Positions 2,363-48,265 of a stretch of 64,000 nucleotides of DNA are shown here, piece after piece (position 1 is the first letter of the stretch; each line of letters starts with the position of its first letter). Under the pieces are notes generated by a model, which saw nothing but the letters and a program-made list of their open reading frames with translations, did not search any database and had not been told where the DNA came from. The DNA is from Escherichia coli. Lineage in GTDB: Bacteria > Pseudomonadota > Gammaproteobacteria > Enterobacterales > Enterobacteriaceae. The stretch is from NCBI RefSeq assembly GCF_016026235.1, contig NZ_CP065613.1. One strand, 5' to 3'. Both the position numbers and the translations under genes were made by a program.

Positions 2363-3745
2363 TTAGTTCTGCACTTCTTGAGAGGTGAATTGTTGCTGGC
2401 AACGGCGTTTGCCCTGAGCCAGCTGTTCCATAACGGTTTTCAGATTGTGCGTCGTGAGTGAGTAGTAGCGTTTAGCGATAATCGCGCTCAGCAAATAACA
2501 GATCGCCGGAACAATCGTGAATAGCGCGATAATGATGCTAATCGTGGCGCTGTTCTGCGCTTTTTCTGCCGCATCATATCCGCCATAAGCCAGCATCCAG
2601 CCGATAAGAGCGCCGCCGAAGGCCAACCCCAGTTTGAGCACAAACAGCGTGCCAGCAAAACTGATCCCGGTCAGGCGTTTACCATTGCACCACTCGCCGT
2701 AATCGACGGTATCGGACATCATTACCCACTGGATAGGTGTCACCAGTTGATGCAACACACCAATCACGAAGATGAAGACAAACATAGTGATGCTGGCCTG
2801 CATGGGAACAAAGAACATTGCGAGGCTAATCACTGCCAGCAGGGCGTTCGTCCACCAGAAGATAGTGACTTTACATTTCCAGTCGGTCAGCGGTTTTGCC
2901 AGTGCGGAACCAATCAGGTTACCCACGCAATAAGTGGTGAGAAAAGCGACAAACACTTCCGGCGTACCCAAAATCCATGTGACGTAATACATCATCGCCC
3001 CACCGCGTACGCACACCGCCAGGATATTGAAAATGGTTAGTAAACCGACAATCCGCCACTGGTCGTTTTGCCAGATATCACGTAAATCTTCCCGCATAGA
3101 CGTCGTTGTAGGTGGTGCTTCAACGCGTTCTTTAGTGGTGAAGAAACAGAATGCCAGCATCATGAATGCCACCACGGAAAGGACCGCGATACCGCCCTGG
3201 AAACCGAGTGGTTTATTATCACCACCAATTAAATTAACCAGTGGCATCATCAGAACAGTAGAGAGCATGCCTCCCGCGGTCGCCAGCACAAAACGCCAGA
3301 ATTGCAGCGAGATACGCTGAGTCGGGTCATTGGTGATTACACCACCCAATGCGCAGTAAGGGATATTGACGACGGTATAAAGTAAGGTAAGTAGGGTGTA
3401 AGTAATTGCTGCATAGATCATTTTTCCGTTCATAGTGAGATCTGGCGTGCTATAGGCCAGTACACAGACGATCCCGAATGGCAGTGCGCCAAACAGTACC
3501 CACGGACGAAATTTACCCCAGCGAGAGCGCGTTCGATCGGCCAACAATCCCATGCAAGGATCGGAAATCGCATCCAGTGCACGAGCGACCAAAAACATGG
3601 TTCCGACAAATCCGGCAGGAATGCCAAAAATATCGGTATAAAAGAACATCATATATAACATTACGTTATCGAAAATAATGTGGCTGGCGGCGTCTCCCAT
3701 GCCATAACCAATTTTCTCTTTAACGGACAACACTTCACTCTTCAT
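2363..3745 (-). CDS. yicJ: sugar:cation symporter (GPH family), likely co-transcribed with yicI
   Basis: Track ORF is 479 aa; trimmed to the internal Met (MKSEVLSVKEK...) giving 460 aa, with an AAGGA-like RBS upstream. Lies 10 nt upstream of yicI on the same strand. Confidence 0.85.
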   Translation of the reverse strand: MKSEVLSVKEKIGYGMGDAASHIIFDNVMLYMMFFYTDIFGIPAGFVGTMFLVARALDAISDPCMGLLADRTRSRWGKFRPWVLFGALPFGIVCVLAYSTPDLTMNGKMIYAAITYTLLTLLYTVVNIPYCALGGVITNDPTQRISLQFWRFVLATAGGMLSTVLMMPLVNLIGGDNKPLGFQGGIAVLSVVAFMMLAFCFFTTKERVEAPPTTTSMREDLRDIWQNDQWRIVGLLTIFNILAVCVRGGAMMYYVTWILGTPEVFVAFLTTYCVGNLIGSALAKPLTDWKCKVTIFWWTNALLAVISLAMFFVPMQASITMFVFIFVIGVLHQLVTPIQWVMMSDTVDYGEWCNGKRLTGISFAGTLFVLKLGLAFGGALIGWMLAYGGYDAAEKAQNSATISIIIALFTIVPAICYLLSAIIAKRYYSLTTHNLKTVMEQLAQGKRRCQQQFTSQEVQN

Positions 3746-4000
3746 CTGCTTTTCCTTGATGCTATAGGGGTGCTGAGACCGATAACGCATTTTGTAAACC
3801 ATCCCTGTGAGAGCGAATATTCCGATATCTGGTTATTAATTTATGATTCTTGTTTTATGTGATCGTGGTAGCGTTAATTCCGCTCATATATCATTGTAAA
3901 ATATGGGTTTTATATGAACTATAATGCTTTCGTGATAATACGCTGCGTGTATTAGGCGGAAAAAACTGATCTGGGGGATGTAGAAACTCAAGGAAGTAGC

Positions 4001-4006
4001 TATAAT
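4001..4006 (+). promoter_or_regulatory. candidate -10 hexamer (TATAAT) for selC
   Basis: Perfect TATAAT about 32 nt upstream of the tRNA 5' end; the -35 is weak. Confidence 0.35.
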
Positions 4007-4037
4007 GCGCCCCGCCTCCATGTAGCAATCGAGGCGC

Positions 4038-4132
4038 GGAAGATCGTCGTCTCCGGTGAGGCGGCTGGACTTCAAATCCAGTTGGGGCCGCCAGCGGTCC
4101 CGGGCAGGTTCGACTCCTGTGATCTTCCGCCA
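4038..4132 (+). tRNA. selC: tRNA-Sec (selenocysteine tRNA)
   Basis: 95-nt sequence GGAAGATCG...TTCGACTCCTGTGATCTTCCGCCA with a long variable arm and encoded CCA; recognised as E. coli selC. Confidence 0.95.
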
Positions 4133-4769
4133 AAATGCCTCTTCTGACGTTCTCCAATCCCTTGTAATACTGTCAATCCAGATATTTTCTACTGCTCAAT
4201 ATTCAATCGGCTTCAGGAATACCTGGTCAAAGGTTTTGTGATGGACGATGAGCAGCTGAAGAATCCGCCTGTCGGTTCTTCTGTCCTCGAACGCATCCGC
4301 GATATTCGCGCCAGCATGCGCCGTGTTTATTTGCAGGTGATTTGCCCCCCTGCTGACTCTCAGCCAACTGTATCGCCATTAAGGTGAAGATGTTGTTTTA
4401 CACGCTCCAGAACACCCTTTTTTATACGACTATTCTATTCCTTTAACAGCTGGCGAAAAAAACTGACCTATAAACCTCACCAATAATCAGACTGCCATCA
4501 AGATTAATTTGTTAATTTAATATATCAAATCAACTTGTTTTATTTTTACTATCAAAAATAGCTCATTGCCTTACTATAATTAATATATAAATTCGGTAAT
4601 TAATTCTTAACATGCTTTTGCTAATAATCTCAATTGCTGGCCCTATAATATTGCGCTAGCATTGCTTTCTGGTTGTATCAGCGATACTCAAAAATTCTTA
4701 ATACAATACTCATTCGACTGGTACTTATTTGTAACTCAGTTATATTTTGTCGCTCGGTGATTCAGAAGA

Positions 4770-8365: not shown

Positions 8366-9556
8366 TCAGGATTTCTTCATTTTCACCTTTGCAGTAACCA
8401 ACAATGCAGTCAGCAACATCAATGTGCCGGACAACATCAACGGCGAAGTCAGACCAATATTATCCAGCGCATAACCGCCGATTGCCGCACCACAGGTATT
8501 AGCAAGCTGAATAACCGCCACCTGAATAGACCCGGCTTTTTCTGCCTGATCGGCCAGCGAGCGGGTGATCCACGTTGACCAGCCGACGGGAACCAATGCA
8601 AAAGTTAGCCCCCAGATAATCGCCACGCCGGTAGCAACGATTTTATCGCTTCCCCACAACGTCAGTACCAACGCACTCACAGCCAGTATTAACGGCGCGC
8701 CTGCTAAGGCCAGTTTTACCGAACGTTTAAGAATGAACGACGAAAGCGACGTACCAATAAAGCTGGCGATACCAAAACTCAACAGCACCAGCGTTAAGCC
8801 ATCCACGCCGAATCCCGCCAGGTTCATATACACCGGGCGAATATACGTGAAGAAAGCAAACTGCCCGGCGAAAGACATGAAGATGGCGATCATCCCTGCC
8901 ATCACACCCGGACGTTGTAATAAGCGGAAAGTATTTTGTTTCTGATGCGAGGGTTCGCCTGGCAGCGAAGGCAATGATTTGATAATCCAGAAAATACACA
9001 ACACGCCCATCACCGCCGCCGCATTAAAGACATTGCGCCAACCGATAAGCTCGCCTAAAAAACTGCCCAACGGCGCGGCAATCACCAGCGCAATAGAAAC
9101 CGCGCCGAAGATCACCGACAGCGCCTTCGGCACCGTACGCGGCGGTACCAGACGCATGGTCAGCGACGCCGACATCGCCCAGAACCCGCCCAGCGCCAGC
9201 CCCAGACAGGCACGACCGATTAAAAGCAAACTGAATGAGTTAGCAAAGGAAACCAGCAAACAGGAGAGCGTCAGCAAAACGGCAAATAAAATAACAACGT
9301 AGCGGCGGTCAGTAGCCTGAATTGTCTGGGTAATAAACAAACTGGCAAACATTGCCACAAAGGCGGTCACGGTCACCGATTGCCCGGCAACCCCTTCCGA
9401 AATGCCTAAATCCTGGGCCATTGGCGTCAACAAACTGACGGGCAAAAACTCAACGATAATCAGACAGGCGACGCAAAACGCCACCGAGAAAACGGCTGAC
9501 CAGTTCGGTCGGGTGATGGCATCCGCGCCGCGGTTTTCGGCAATAAATTCACTCAT
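8366..9556 (-). CDS. nepI: purine ribonucleoside efflux pump (MFS)
   Basis: Track ORF is 438 aa; trimmed to [15 protein letters not shown]... giving 396 aa, the length I recall for NepI. Confidence 0.85.
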
Positions 9557-9783
9557 GGTGTTACCCGTGGCATGTTTCAGGGGAAAAGCCGACCACTTTA
9601 ACATTGAAATGTGTGACGCATTTAACGTTTTTGCAACTTTTACGGTGTTGTGGGAAAAGTTCGAGGCTGCTCGAAGAAACAAAAATCATAGGGCAAGCTG
9701 ATATGCATTTTCGCGATTGGGTTGGGAATAAGGGATAAAGTATTGCACTTGGTGATATACTTTAATAACAGGACCTCAACGAT

Positions 9784-10143
9784 ATGCGCGTGTTTAAAAC
9801 CAAATGGTTTGCAAGGGAAGCCAGGTCTCATGCAATAACAGATGAAGAGTTGTGCCGGGCCATTTTAGAAACGGAGCAAGGTAAAGCTGATGCACTTGGT
9901 GGTGGCGTTTTTAAAAAGCGCCTTCACCAAAATCGTGAGCGTGCAATTATTCTGGCAAAAGGGGGAAGCAATTGGTTTTACACGTTTTTATATGCAAAAC
10001 AGGATATGTCGAACATCAATAGTCAGGAACTGGCTGGGTTTCGTGAACTTGCAAAGCATTATGCCTTCCTGACGAAAGCCCAGCTAACAGCAATGATTAA
10101 CACTAAAGAACTGACAGAGATCTGCTATGACTGCAAAAACTAA
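9784..10143 (+). CDS. putative type II toxin, RelE/ParE superfamily (HigB-2-like)
   Basis: 119-aa basic protein; overlaps the downstream HTH gene by 17 nt (ATGACTGCAAAAACTAA). Family assignment is from architecture and recalled resemblance, not a search. Confidence 0.55.
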   Translation: MRVFKTKWFAREARSHAITDEELCRAILETEQGKADALGGGVFKKRLHQNRERAIILAKGGSNWFYTFLYAKQDMSNINSQELAGFRELAKHYAFLTKAQLTAMINTKELTEICYDCKN

Positions 10144-10450
10144 ATTTAAAAGTCCTGCATTTGAGGCTATTCACAGCGCAGCGGCTGGATTGTCCAGCGT
10201 CGATGCTATTTCTGCCGAAACAATGCGTACTTTTGACAAAGCCTGCCTGACCAGCGTGCAAGACTTACAACCTGTTGAGATAAAAGCACTGCGGGAAAAA
10301 TTAAAAGTGAGTCAGCCCGTCTTCGCTCACTATCTCAATACCAGCGTTTCAACTGTACAAAAATGGGAAAGTGGCGCTAAACGCCCCAATGGCATTTCAT
10401 TAAAACTGCTCAGCATTGTGCAAAAACACGGGCTGGATGTGCTGCTGTAA
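10127..10450 (+). CDS. putative antitoxin, helix-turn-helix (Xre-like) DNA-binding protein
   Basis: 107 aa with a C-terminal HTH-like segment (...SQPVFAHYLNTSVSTVQKWESGAKRP...); translationally coupled to the upstream toxin-like gene. Confidence 0.55.
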   Translation: MTAKTKFKSPAFEAIHSAAAGLSSVDAISAETMRTFDKACLTSVQDLQPVEIKALREKLKVSQPVFAHYLNTSVSTVQKWESGAKRPNGISLKLLSIVQKHGLDVLL

Positions 10451-10491
10451 ATAGAACGTAGATAATGCGTCACCTACTGTCAGTTCCGATA

Positions 10492-10562
10492 CCGGATGCG
10501 GCGTGAACGTCTTATCCACCCACCAGCTCAGGCGCGGTCTGTAGGCTGATAAGACGAAGCGG
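10492..10562. repeat. pair of REP-like palindromic units (BIME-like)
   Basis: CCGGATGCGGCGTGAACGTCTTATCC and GTAGGCTGATAAGACGAAGCGG in opposite orientation; resemble E. coli REP consensus. Confidence 0.5.
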
Positions 10563-10564
10563 TT

Positions 10565-11017
10565 TTAATGCAGCCAGTGAACGCCCTCGGCAGGCTGAAA
10601 GAATGCGTTATAGCGCATCTGAAAAGCATTAATATCCTGCATTTCAGGTTCAGTTTCGCGCAGAAAACCCAGCGCCAGCCTGACCTGAGCATCGGTAATC
10701 GGCGCGGCAAGGCGGGCTTTTTGTAAAATCCGATGCCATTGCAGCAGGTTCTGTTCGCTACCATCGACAATGACAATTTGCCAGATGAGCAACACCTGCG
10801 CGGCGTTTTGCAGGTGCGACTCATCCGGACGATGCAAATAACGTAAAAATTCGTCACCAGCTGACTTTCCCATTTGATCGACCATCGACTCCACGGGTAC
10901 GACATCGATATTCAGCCGATCGCTGAGACGGCGAATCGCTTTTCTGGCCCCGGATGTCAGCACCCGAAAACCAACCACAAACACTACCGCCAGCGTGGCG
11001 AGCATTATCCAGATCAT
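10565..11017 (-). CDS. yicN: DUF1198-type membrane protein
   Basis: Track ORF is 185 aa; trimmed to MIWIMLATLAVVFVV... (150 aa). Start choice is uncertain. Confidence 0.7.
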   Translation of the reverse strand: MIWIMLATLAVVFVVGFRVLTSGARKAIRRLSDRLNIDVVPVESMVDQMGKSAGDEFLRYLHRPDESHLQNAAQVLLIWQIVIVDGSEQNLLQWHRILQKARLAAPITDAQVRLALGFLRETEPEMQDINAFQMRYNAFFQPAEGVHWLH

Positions 11018-12298: not shown

Positions 12299-13593
12299 CC
12301 TGAGGGATCCCCAGAAAATTTAGTAAACCATTATCATATTGGTATACCGTTGCTGTAGAACTTTCAGCCCTGCGTCAAGTGACAGTGTGTTTAGTATGAG
12401 TGGAGAATGTCGAATCACATTCTCCGCCAGTTTTAATAACGAGATGACTCGCCTGTGCTTCACTGTATTTGCCTGATATTTATGATGTATCCCTTTGTTT
12501 TCCAGGCTGAAACCGCTTAACCACATAATGATACTGGCTAATGTTGCGATCAGACTCAATACCGTGACCCGCCCGGATGAATGACTGGCACCAAACCGTA
12601 GTCCAAATCCCCAGCGAGGATTTTTTCATCCCTGAAATTTTGCTCAATTTGCATTCTACGGCTGTATAATTTCATTACCTGTTTTGGCGAGAACTCAGTA
12701 CTGTTTGTGAAAATAAACCATGGTGATTTCCCGGCAGTACGAGCTTTAGCCGTCACCGATGGTCTGGTTGCTCTTTCCTTCGAGCGTTTAAATCTACGAC
12801 CTTTAGACTTACTTTTATAAAGATAAAAATGCCCTTCATGTTGTGCATTTTTATCTCGACCCAGCAGGCCTTCATCTAAATAAATTGCTGTCGTTGATGC
12901 TTTTGTGCCTGAGTCCGACACCTTTTCCCAGCCATTACCAACATTGTAATAATGATTGCCCAGTACCCGGCAAATATAGGTCCAGCCACGGGAGCGGAGC
13001 TGTTGGAACCATCGCCCCTGAAAACCGGCATCTGTAATAACAATGACATCAGTCCCGGGGGAAAAGCACTCAGCAAGCGATTCCAGAAAACGCTCATGTA
13101 CATCTGCATTCGCTGTCTGTGATGATGGAACGACACAACTCATCAACGGTAAAGAACGCCCGTCACATGCCAGGCTTGCCCGCAAAAGCTGAAAACGAGA
13201 GGCATGATAAGCACTCCAGTCAATGAGTATCACAACACGAGACATTCCCCGCGTAATCTTTTGGGTAATTCGCTGAAAAATGGTGGAAACCTCATTTTGC
13301 AAATGTCGATTCCCCAACAGTCGATCCACCCGCTTTATTTTGTTTTTAACTGATGCCGTACCGGTTAAATGACGCCCGATACTGGTAAGTGTGAGGGAAG
13401 CGCCATTTATTACAGCATTAGTTGCGTCAATCAGTGATTTTTGACGGTAAAGATGCAAAGGGGCCAGTATGTTGTTAAGGAAATTTTGGCATAATGAACG
13501 TGCAGGCATAGTGGTGATCTCCTTGAAATTGTTAGCACAATCAATTAGATCACATCTCACTATGCCTGTCTTGTTTTCTGGGGATTCCTCAGT
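12299..13593 (-). mobile_element. IS4-family, IS10-like insertion sequence (~1.29 kb) inserted in adeQ
   Basis: Terminal inverted repeats CTGAGGGATCCCC (left) and GGGGATTCCTCAG (right) resemble IS10 ends; flanked by direct repeat TGGTCATCC at 12290-12298 and 13593-13601. Boundary is ambiguous by 1 nt. Confidence 0.8.
12320..13509 (-). pseudogene. IS10-like DDE transposase, frameshifted
   Basis: Translation from MPARSL... shares blocks with IS10 transposase (NKIKRVDRLLGNRHL, DAGF, YLYKSKSKGRRF, YSRRMQIEQNFRD). Reading frame changes near 12619-12626 at an A6 run; the C-terminal ~80 codons continue in the adjacent frame. Confidence 0.75.
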
Positions 13594-13707
13594 GGTCATC
13601 CCCGCAATCAATTCTGTGCGGACGGTGGTCCCATGCTGAGGTAGTTTAAATAATCGCGAAAGCGTCCCTGATTCATTACTCACGTAATCGGTATTGTCAT
13701 TATTCAT
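13593..13707 (-). pseudogene. adeQ: adeQ 5' fragment (first ~39 codons) plus native promoter side
   Basis: MNNDNTDYVSNESGTLSRLFKLPQHGTTVRTELIAGMTT runs directly into the IS end; the duplicated target repeats the GMTT coding bases. Confidence 0.75.
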
Positions 13708-13881
13708 TTTTTTGTCCATTGGAGGAGATTTAATCCCTTGCTTTTGTAAAACAAATGACAACAACGGTTCAGTGATAATTATCACATTTCAATTGCACAT
13801 TAATGGATATTCTTTAATAATCTCGCGACGTTTCTTTATGATAAATAATAATCAAATTGATAAAATCAAAATGAGAAAAAT

Positions 13882-48134: not shown

Positions 48135-48146
48135 TTATAGCTTCTT

Positions 48147-48244
48147 GCCGGATGCGGCGTGAACGCCTTATCCGGCCTACAAAAACATGCAAATTCAATA
48201 TATTGCAGGAGTCTCGTAGGCCTGATAAGCGTAGCGCAACAGGC
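48147..48244. repeat. two REP elements in inverted orientation (BIME)
   Basis: GCCGGATGCGGCGTGAACGCCTTATCCGGCCTAC and GTAGGCCTGATAAGCGTAGCGCAACAGGC. Confidence 0.65.
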
Positions 48245-48265
48245 ACGCTCGCATGGTTAACGCCA

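Follow-up and report, generated by a model that had tools for sequence, protein, structure and literature searches.

A relic BIME, made up of the remains of two REP units set head to head, lies between a predicted type II toxin-antitoxin (TA) pair and the 3' end of yicN in the Escherichia coli chromosome analysed here. We put at about three in four the probability that the TA pair represents the older state of this site, and that the K-12-type site, which carries a short scar in place of the pair, is the product of an old deletion ending at the outer end of the first REP unit (REP1). The element itself is of an already known kind, ordinary and decayed. Throughout, "the window" denotes the whole stretch of 64,000 nucleotides that was analysed (contig NZ_CP065613.1 of assembly GCF_016026235.1), and positions refer to it unless another record is named.

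Genes in this part of the window follow the order nlpA, yicS, nepI (minus strand), the two-gene pair (plus strand), yicN (minus strand), adeQ and adeD. The coding parts of the nepI-yicN interval are the following:

8366 to 9556, minus strand: nepI, with a conserved block upstream (to ~9650) at which the variable segment ends on the left
9784 to 10143, plus strand: RelE-family toxin gene (PF06296, Pfam E = 8.8e-42), also annotated by RefSeq at identical loci
10127 to 10450, plus strand: HTH (Xre/MqsA-like) antitoxin gene (Pfam HTH_3, E = 6.7e-8)
10565 to 11017, minus strand: yicN (DUF1198), with its stop codon at 10565-10567, 8 nt from REP2

The RelE and HTH genes are a predicted type II TA pair: they are small and co-oriented, overlap by 17 nt and encode both of the domains named above, and the antitoxin matches the NCBIfam models NadS and MqsA below their cut-offs. 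The antitoxin stop (10450) and the yicN stop are 114 nt apart in the window strain, and a promoter and terminator scan of 9500-10700 predicted none of either. Further along, a 1.29-kb insertion relative to K-12 occupies 12301-13590 inside adeQ, with 13 bp of K-12 sequence on both flanks; it holds the open reading frame of an IS4-type (DDE_Tnp_1) transposase (12556-13785, minus strand), so that adeQ is disrupted in the window strain. As RefSeq annotates adeQ as frameshifted in an O157:H7 genome (L008, 2372-2802), the gene has been disrupted twice independently.

The first-pass annotation had placed two REP-like units between the HTH gene and the 3' end of yicN, and both units in the stretch that it marked (10492-10562) do derive from REPs. 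The parts are:

10458 to 10477, plus strand: possible third REP remnant (GTAGATAATGCGTCACCTAC), internally deleted, present only in the allele that carries the pair (TA+) and weakly based
10491 to 10524, minus strand: REP1, a Y-type REP unit (ACCGGATGCGGCGTGAACGTCTTATCCACCCACC), its head toward 10524 and its tail at 10491
10525 to 10540, no strand: linker of 16 nt (AGCTCAGGCGCGGTCT), head to head between REP1 and REP2
10541 to 10556, plus strand: REP2 (GTAGGCTGATAAGACG), the head and 5' arm of a Z2-type REP

Rigid REP consensus patterns (at most 3 mismatches) proved too strict, matching nothing in the window and missing even the canonical REP at 48146; REPs were instead detected by sub-motif scans and by direct comparison with the canonical copy. 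The reference within the window was the canonical intact BIME at 48146-48250 in the yidB-gyrB spacer, in which a second, inverted REP comes after a Y REP. REP1, which reads tail to head on the plus strand, is identical to the canonical REP (48146-48181) at 30 of 36 positions and has in common with it the exact 18-mer CCGGATGCGGCGTGAACG (at 48148-48165 in the canonical copy); this 18-mer matches twice in the window, against 0 expected in 100 shuffles. The homology of REP2 is seen at orthologous sites, where its 16 nt form the head and 5' arm of a full Z2 unit, GTAGGCATGATAAGACGCGCCAGCGTCGCATCAGGC, found in MOD1-EC7003 (L009), in E69 (L010), in E. whittamii (L011) and in E1V33 (L012). REP1 on the minus strand and REP2 on the plus strand thus stand head to head across a 16-nt linker, the arrangement of alternating REPs and short linkers that defines a BIME; the pair is extragenic, lying between the stops of the antitoxin gene and yicN, and its intact orthologue is multicopy. 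The MG1655 RefSeq record contains zero REP features, even at a canonical BIME, so that the lack of an annotation in K-12 is uninformative.

The segment at 10458-10477 is a small GTAG...CTAC palindrome lying 7 nt past the antitoxin stop. In the alignment to the Rfam naRNA4 model it takes the place of the second REP hairpin, its local similarity to a Y REP has p = 0.017, and the fifth pair of its stem is G-C in E69 and A-T in E1V33. If derived from a REP, it would fit the alternating orientation, and it may be either a third REP remnant or the 3' hairpin of the TA transcript. The naRNA4 (RF02564) match as a whole (10457-10521, minus strand) scores 29.1 bits against a gathering score of 59.5, and the element is therefore not a member of that family. 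It resembles naRNA4 and REP325 in part, in that a REP hairpin is joined by a tail-to-tail linker to a small second palindrome, but differs from them in its sub-threshold score and in being known from sequence alone, not as a nucleoid-associated RNA.

Both units are decayed, as can be read directly from the comparison. Folded as single-stranded DNA, REP1 reaches -2.6 kcal/mol (z = +0.4) and REP2 -1.0 kcal/mol (z = +0.2); the canonical REP reaches -11.3 kcal/mol (z = -3.4). Neither REP1 nor REP2 forms the stable stem-loop of an imperfect palindrome of about 35 nt. The orthologous element of E69 folds as two REP hairpins, one of them the orthologue of REP1; since REP1 and REP2 fail to fold while these orthologues do, the units in E. 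coli are relics and not working REPs. The damage takes a different form in each: the stem of REP1 has been ruined by point changes, and its head tetranucleotide is GGTG in the window strain, GTCG in K-12 and GTAG in O157:H7; REP2 retains its GTAG head (10541-10544) and has had its 3' arm of about 20 bp (CGCCAGCGTCGCATCAGGCA) deleted. A full REP2 was present at the nepI-yicN locus in none of 5425 complete E. coli genomes, so that the ~20-bp truncation, which the sister species lack, is fixed in E. coli proper. Intact elements of the E69 type have a median of 10 matches per E. coli genome at megablast stringency, and a REP pair occupies the same position in the C. freundii complex (C. werkmanii, C. 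braakii and Citrobacter FP75). The relic BIME descends from an intact two-REP element still found in other Escherichia species, REP1 having decayed in E. coli by point mutation and REP2 by loss of its 3' arm.

Compared with a standard E. coli Y/Z2 BIME, the element agrees in its opposite REP-derived units, its short linker, its extragenic position just past a stop codon and its homology to canonical REPs; it differs in that neither unit folds, REP1 lacks stem complementarity and (in the window strain) GTAG, and REP2 is a half unit. Its units likewise belong to the same REP family as the REPtron substrates of TnpA_REP/RAYT (PMC8266576, PMC2817692). The E. coli enzyme needs an intact GTAG and a bulged hairpin, and tolerates no change in either (PMC8266576), whereas REP1 in the window strain lacks both and REP2 lacks the hairpin. 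The relic REP1 and REP2 are not expected to be substrates of the REP-associated transposase.

The two half units might instead have been kept as a functional 3' element, in which they would form one long imperfect hairpin that stabilizes the 3' end of the yicN mRNA and keeps transcription of the convergent antitoxin gene and yicN from running from one into the other. An inverted repeat does exist between the 3' arm of REP1 and the 5' arm of REP2, which are 81% complementary over 16 nt, and on the yicN-sense strand a stem of 15-17 bp begins 12 nt past the stop codon in both the TA+ and the K-12 alleles; REPs are, moreover, known stabilizers of mRNA 3' ends (PMC3479197). We nevertheless consider retained function doubtful: the fold energy is not significantly better than that of shuffled sequences (z = -1.3 to -1.7), an intrinsic terminator is not predicted, and REP1 varies from strain to strain and is entirely absent from 19 genomes. 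The most economical view is that the half-REP pair is today a neutral relic, possibly with a weak stabilizing role at the mRNA 3' end.

The distribution of the TA pair was examined in the 5403 complete E. coli genomes that have the nepI-yicN locus. The alleles observed, with the segment on which they differ, are:

TA+ allele, pair present: 1715 of 5403 (31.7%)
K-12-type site without the pair: 3668 of 5403 (67.9%)
Deletion extending from within nepI to the REP linker: 19 of 5403
Unaccounted for, by subtraction: ~1 of 5403
9651 to 10489, plus strand: TA+ segment of 839 bp, replaced by the 41-bp scar CTTGAGCTGGAGTTAAGATCGAAACGGAACAGGGCAAAGAT in K-12-type genomes

In the multi-genome comparison the REP pair is kept in all 1715 TA+ genomes, and the K-12-type genomes, which lack the TA pair, retain both REP units without exception (3668 of 3668). 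A BLAST comparison with MG1655 sets K-12 positions 3835-3875 against window positions 9651-10489, and the breakpoints, 9650|9651 and 10489|10490, are identical in every genome without the pair (TA-) that was examined, including K-12, DH5a, O18 and K56-43. Homology between TA+ and TA- sequences picks up again at T10490, 1 nt outside REP1. The left breakpoint is at the edge of a block which lies upstream of nepI and is conserved across genera. The first-pass annotation had suggested that the REP junction is where the pair was gained or lost, and the genome comparison that it proposed came out as predicted. The suggestion held in part: the right breakpoint abuts REP1, at a distance of 1 nt, but the left end has no REP of any kind, and the event was most likely a loss.

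The 19-genome deletion is a separate allele, which removes the 5' end of nepI, the spacer and REP1 (wholly absent) and ends in the REP1-REP2 linker, between direct repeats of 5-8 bp, CAGGC(GCG), the right-hand copy being the CAGGCGCG contained in the linker. Both main alleles occur on B2-like flanks (O18 is TA-, Ecol_745 is TA+) and divergence within each allele class is up to 2-3%, which together indicate that the polymorphism is old and has been shuffled by recombination.

Whether the pair was gained or lost can be judged from its occurrence in other genomes. A scan with YicN as the query, taking one genome per species, gave 57 loci, among which the pair was observed directly between nepI and yicN not only in E69 and E1V33 but also in two other genera, in C. 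amalonaticus ku-bf3 (L016) and Klebsiella indica (L022). Identity to these Citrobacter and K. indica copies is 73% for the toxin and 79-85% for the antitoxin, compared with 89-91% for NepI and 82-85% for YicN; the region upstream of the toxin gene is homologous as well, and the spacers of C. amalonaticus and K. indica contain no REPs. In Citrobacter MGH106 (L029, freundii complex), a remnant of 36 residues of the toxin C-terminus is found, fused to the remnant of another gene.

The K-12-type site itself appears to hold a scrap of the toxin gene:

9868 to 9886, plus strand: toxin codons E29-K34, surviving in the K-12-type scar as GAAACGGAACAGGGCAAAG, directly left of REP1

In the K-12 scar this stretch of 19 nt is followed only by the closing AT, and 16-17 of its 19 nt match the toxin codons, all differences being synonymous and at the third codon position. 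The match has a shuffle p of 0.0007 against the Ecol_745 allele and ~0.02 against other alleles. No match in the TA+ allele was obtained for the 20 nt with which the scar begins. A MAFFT alignment that treated the 41-bp scar as the homologue of the left end of the TA+ segment was rejected (shuffle p = 0.54), the best match lying inside the toxin gene. The same scar is found in E. whittamii, with a further 10-bp loss, and in MOD1-EC7003 it has been eroded more, by a deletion running in from nepI.

Because the pair keeps its place in two other genera and a scrap of its toxin gene persists in K-12, the event points to loss and not gain: the pair is most likely the ancestral state of the nepI-yicN site, and the K-12-type allele most likely goes back to a single old deletion. 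The last ~20 nt of the 41-bp scar would then be toxin codons from codon 29 (to about 34-36), abutting REP1, and the deletion, common to E. whittamii, would have been old and later passed between lineages by homologous recombination. Its mechanism was likely illegitimate recombination with little or no homology.

The opposite reading takes the K-12-type site as the original one, into which the RelE/HTH pair would have been inserted beside a pre-existing REP pair that served as target or recombination site, the insertion then spreading horizontally. REPs are known targets of some insertion sequences, the junction falls 1 nt from REP1, and a short GAT(A) is found at both ends of the right-hand part of the TA+ segment. 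We think a gain very improbable all the same, given that the pair sits at the same place, with homologous upstream sequence, in the REP-free spacers of C. amalonaticus and K. indica; that a decayed remnant exists in a Citrobacter of the freundii complex; that the "empty" allele contains toxin codons differing only synonymously; and that the segment has no integrase, inverted repeats or clean target duplication. Nor were close copies of the toxin found in plasmid and phage collections, true plasmids giving at most 58% identity; a 99% "plasmid" match turned out to be the record of a 4.9-Mb chromosome and was discarded. Separately, a 1075-bp contig binned as a Collinsella MAG (L063), which shares 97-100% identity with the E. 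coli TA pair and the end of yicN, is probably E. coli DNA placed in the wrong bin. The synteny across three genera might in principle also arise from repeated targeting of one hotspot; a different TA pair is indeed present at the site in Citrobacter.

Some observations weigh against loss by one old deletion. The match to the toxin scrap covers only 19 nt, with a p that depends on the allele compared, and the opening 20 nt of the scar are unmatched in the TA+ allele. Both E. coli haplotypes carry the REP2 truncation, and the scar allele in the sister species has a full REP2; to bring the same truncation onto both haplotypes, a crossover within ~50 bp, an interspecies transfer of the scar allele or a recurrent identical truncation is needed.

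A comparable history is that of ccdO157, a chromosomal TA locus between folA and apaH in whose place K-12 has a short intergenic stretch. The two cases are alike in that some phylogroups, O157:H7 included, have a TA pair where other strains have a short scar at exactly the same site, with no signatures of mobile elements. They differ in that the pair studied here combines a RelE toxin (PF06296) with an Xre-type HTH protein, and in that its scar keeps recognizable toxin codons and adjoins a REP.

Given loss, it can be asked what placed the right-hand end of the deletion so close to REP1. A REP hairpin still intact at the time might have helped to set the endpoint, through replication stalling, through gyrase or through cleavage by RAYT; judged from the sequences, we hold this to be less likely than not. 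Otherwise selection would have fixed the endpoint, the 3' region of yicN being kept on one side and the control region of nepI on the other. Deletions that spare yicN must end in a spacer of 114-134 bp, of which about two-thirds is REP sequence, and the chance that an endpoint falls within 1 nt of any of four REP edges is roughly 10%. With so much of the spacer filled by REP, an endpoint at a REP edge is only mildly unexpected, and no enrichment of endpoints in the BIME is claimed here.

That the REPs did not promote the deletion at all, its endpoint being forced by selection into a spacer that is mostly REP, seems to us evenly balanced. This reading accounts well for the left limit, which is the same conserved block upstream of nepI in every allele and every genus, and for C. 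amalonaticus, where the same TA+/TA- polymorphism (L014 versus L016) has the same left limit and a filler of ~40 bp and no REP is present (a search for a scrap of the TA pair in the C. amalonaticus empty allele was negative, p = 0.79). The 19-genome deletion, too, is fully explained by its 5-8-bp direct repeat, CAGGC(GCG). Against coincidence stand the distance of 1 nt from the terminus of REP1 and the other indels that fall at REP centres or edges: the loss of the REP2 3' arm in E. coli; a deletion in E. albertii (L013, 3441-3570) that removes almost the whole of nepI and ends at the centre of REP2, keeping only the REP2 3' arm, which is the half lost by E. coli; a shortened linker in E1V33; and the deletion in MOD1-EC7003, which ends 5 nt from REP1. 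The 19-genome deletion, with its end in the linker, also falls in the element. The target is small, and these cases are suggestive only.

A more specific proposal is that the REP-associated transposase cut REP1 at its tail while that unit was still intact, and that the deletion arose in repair of the cut. On single-stranded DNA, E. coli TnpA_REP cuts at CT dinucleotides on the 5' and the 3' side of REP hairpins (PMC8266576), and the breakpoint does lie at the 3' end of REP1 on the GTAG-first strand. The junction, however, has no CT, the nearest one on that strand being 8-9 nt away (in the TA+ allele); the present REP1 has neither the GTAG nor the bulged stem that the enzyme requires; and the other end of the deletion lies inside a gene without a REP. 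We regard cleavage by the transposase as highly improbable. Literature searches for the nepI-yicN locus and the toxin found nothing relevant, and a search on REP-linked deletion breakpoints found only unrelated papers.

At a larger scale, the nepI-yicN spacer is variable throughout the Enterobacteriaceae. On the left, every cassette or deletion seen stops at the block upstream of nepI (window 9600-9650, TGTGACGCATTTAACGTTTTTGCAACT), which is conserved from Escherichia to Lelliottia, has an AACGTT near-palindrome at its centre and probably serves as the operator or promoter of nepI. Several Citrobacter species and Leclercia (L017-L019, L028 and L032, at 3451 to ~4930; also L025, L027, L033 and L037) hold other cargo in the spacer: a Gp49/HigB-like toxin gene (PF05973) with an HTH antitoxin gene on the opposite strand, a gene of 175 aa with no match in Pfam, or both. 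The spacer of Enterobacteriaceae bacterium UBA5654 (L045, ~3460-4400) is filled by about 10 tandem 80-bp palindromic repeats of the GGGAGAGGG type. Within Escherichia at least five indels, read as independent, end at REP edges or centres. The spacer might accordingly be viewed as an integrase-free hotspot of cassette turnover in which REP hairpins would set the endpoints of deletions and drive the erosion of resident TA genes, a view that we think unlikely. The hotspot pattern is modestly interesting, and none of its components is new in kind.

The overall significance of the locus is small: it comprises one ordinary decayed BIME with an ordinary genome history. On the reading preferred here, a deletion of the older TA pair ending at REP1, this chromosomal TA pair in E. 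coli would be an old resident, deleted in about two-thirds of sequenced strains, including K-12, and not a newcomer. The locus might be used as a small natural test of whether REP hairpins bias the endpoints of deletions, and it illustrates that intergenic sites that seem "empty" in K-12 can be the scars of lost genes.
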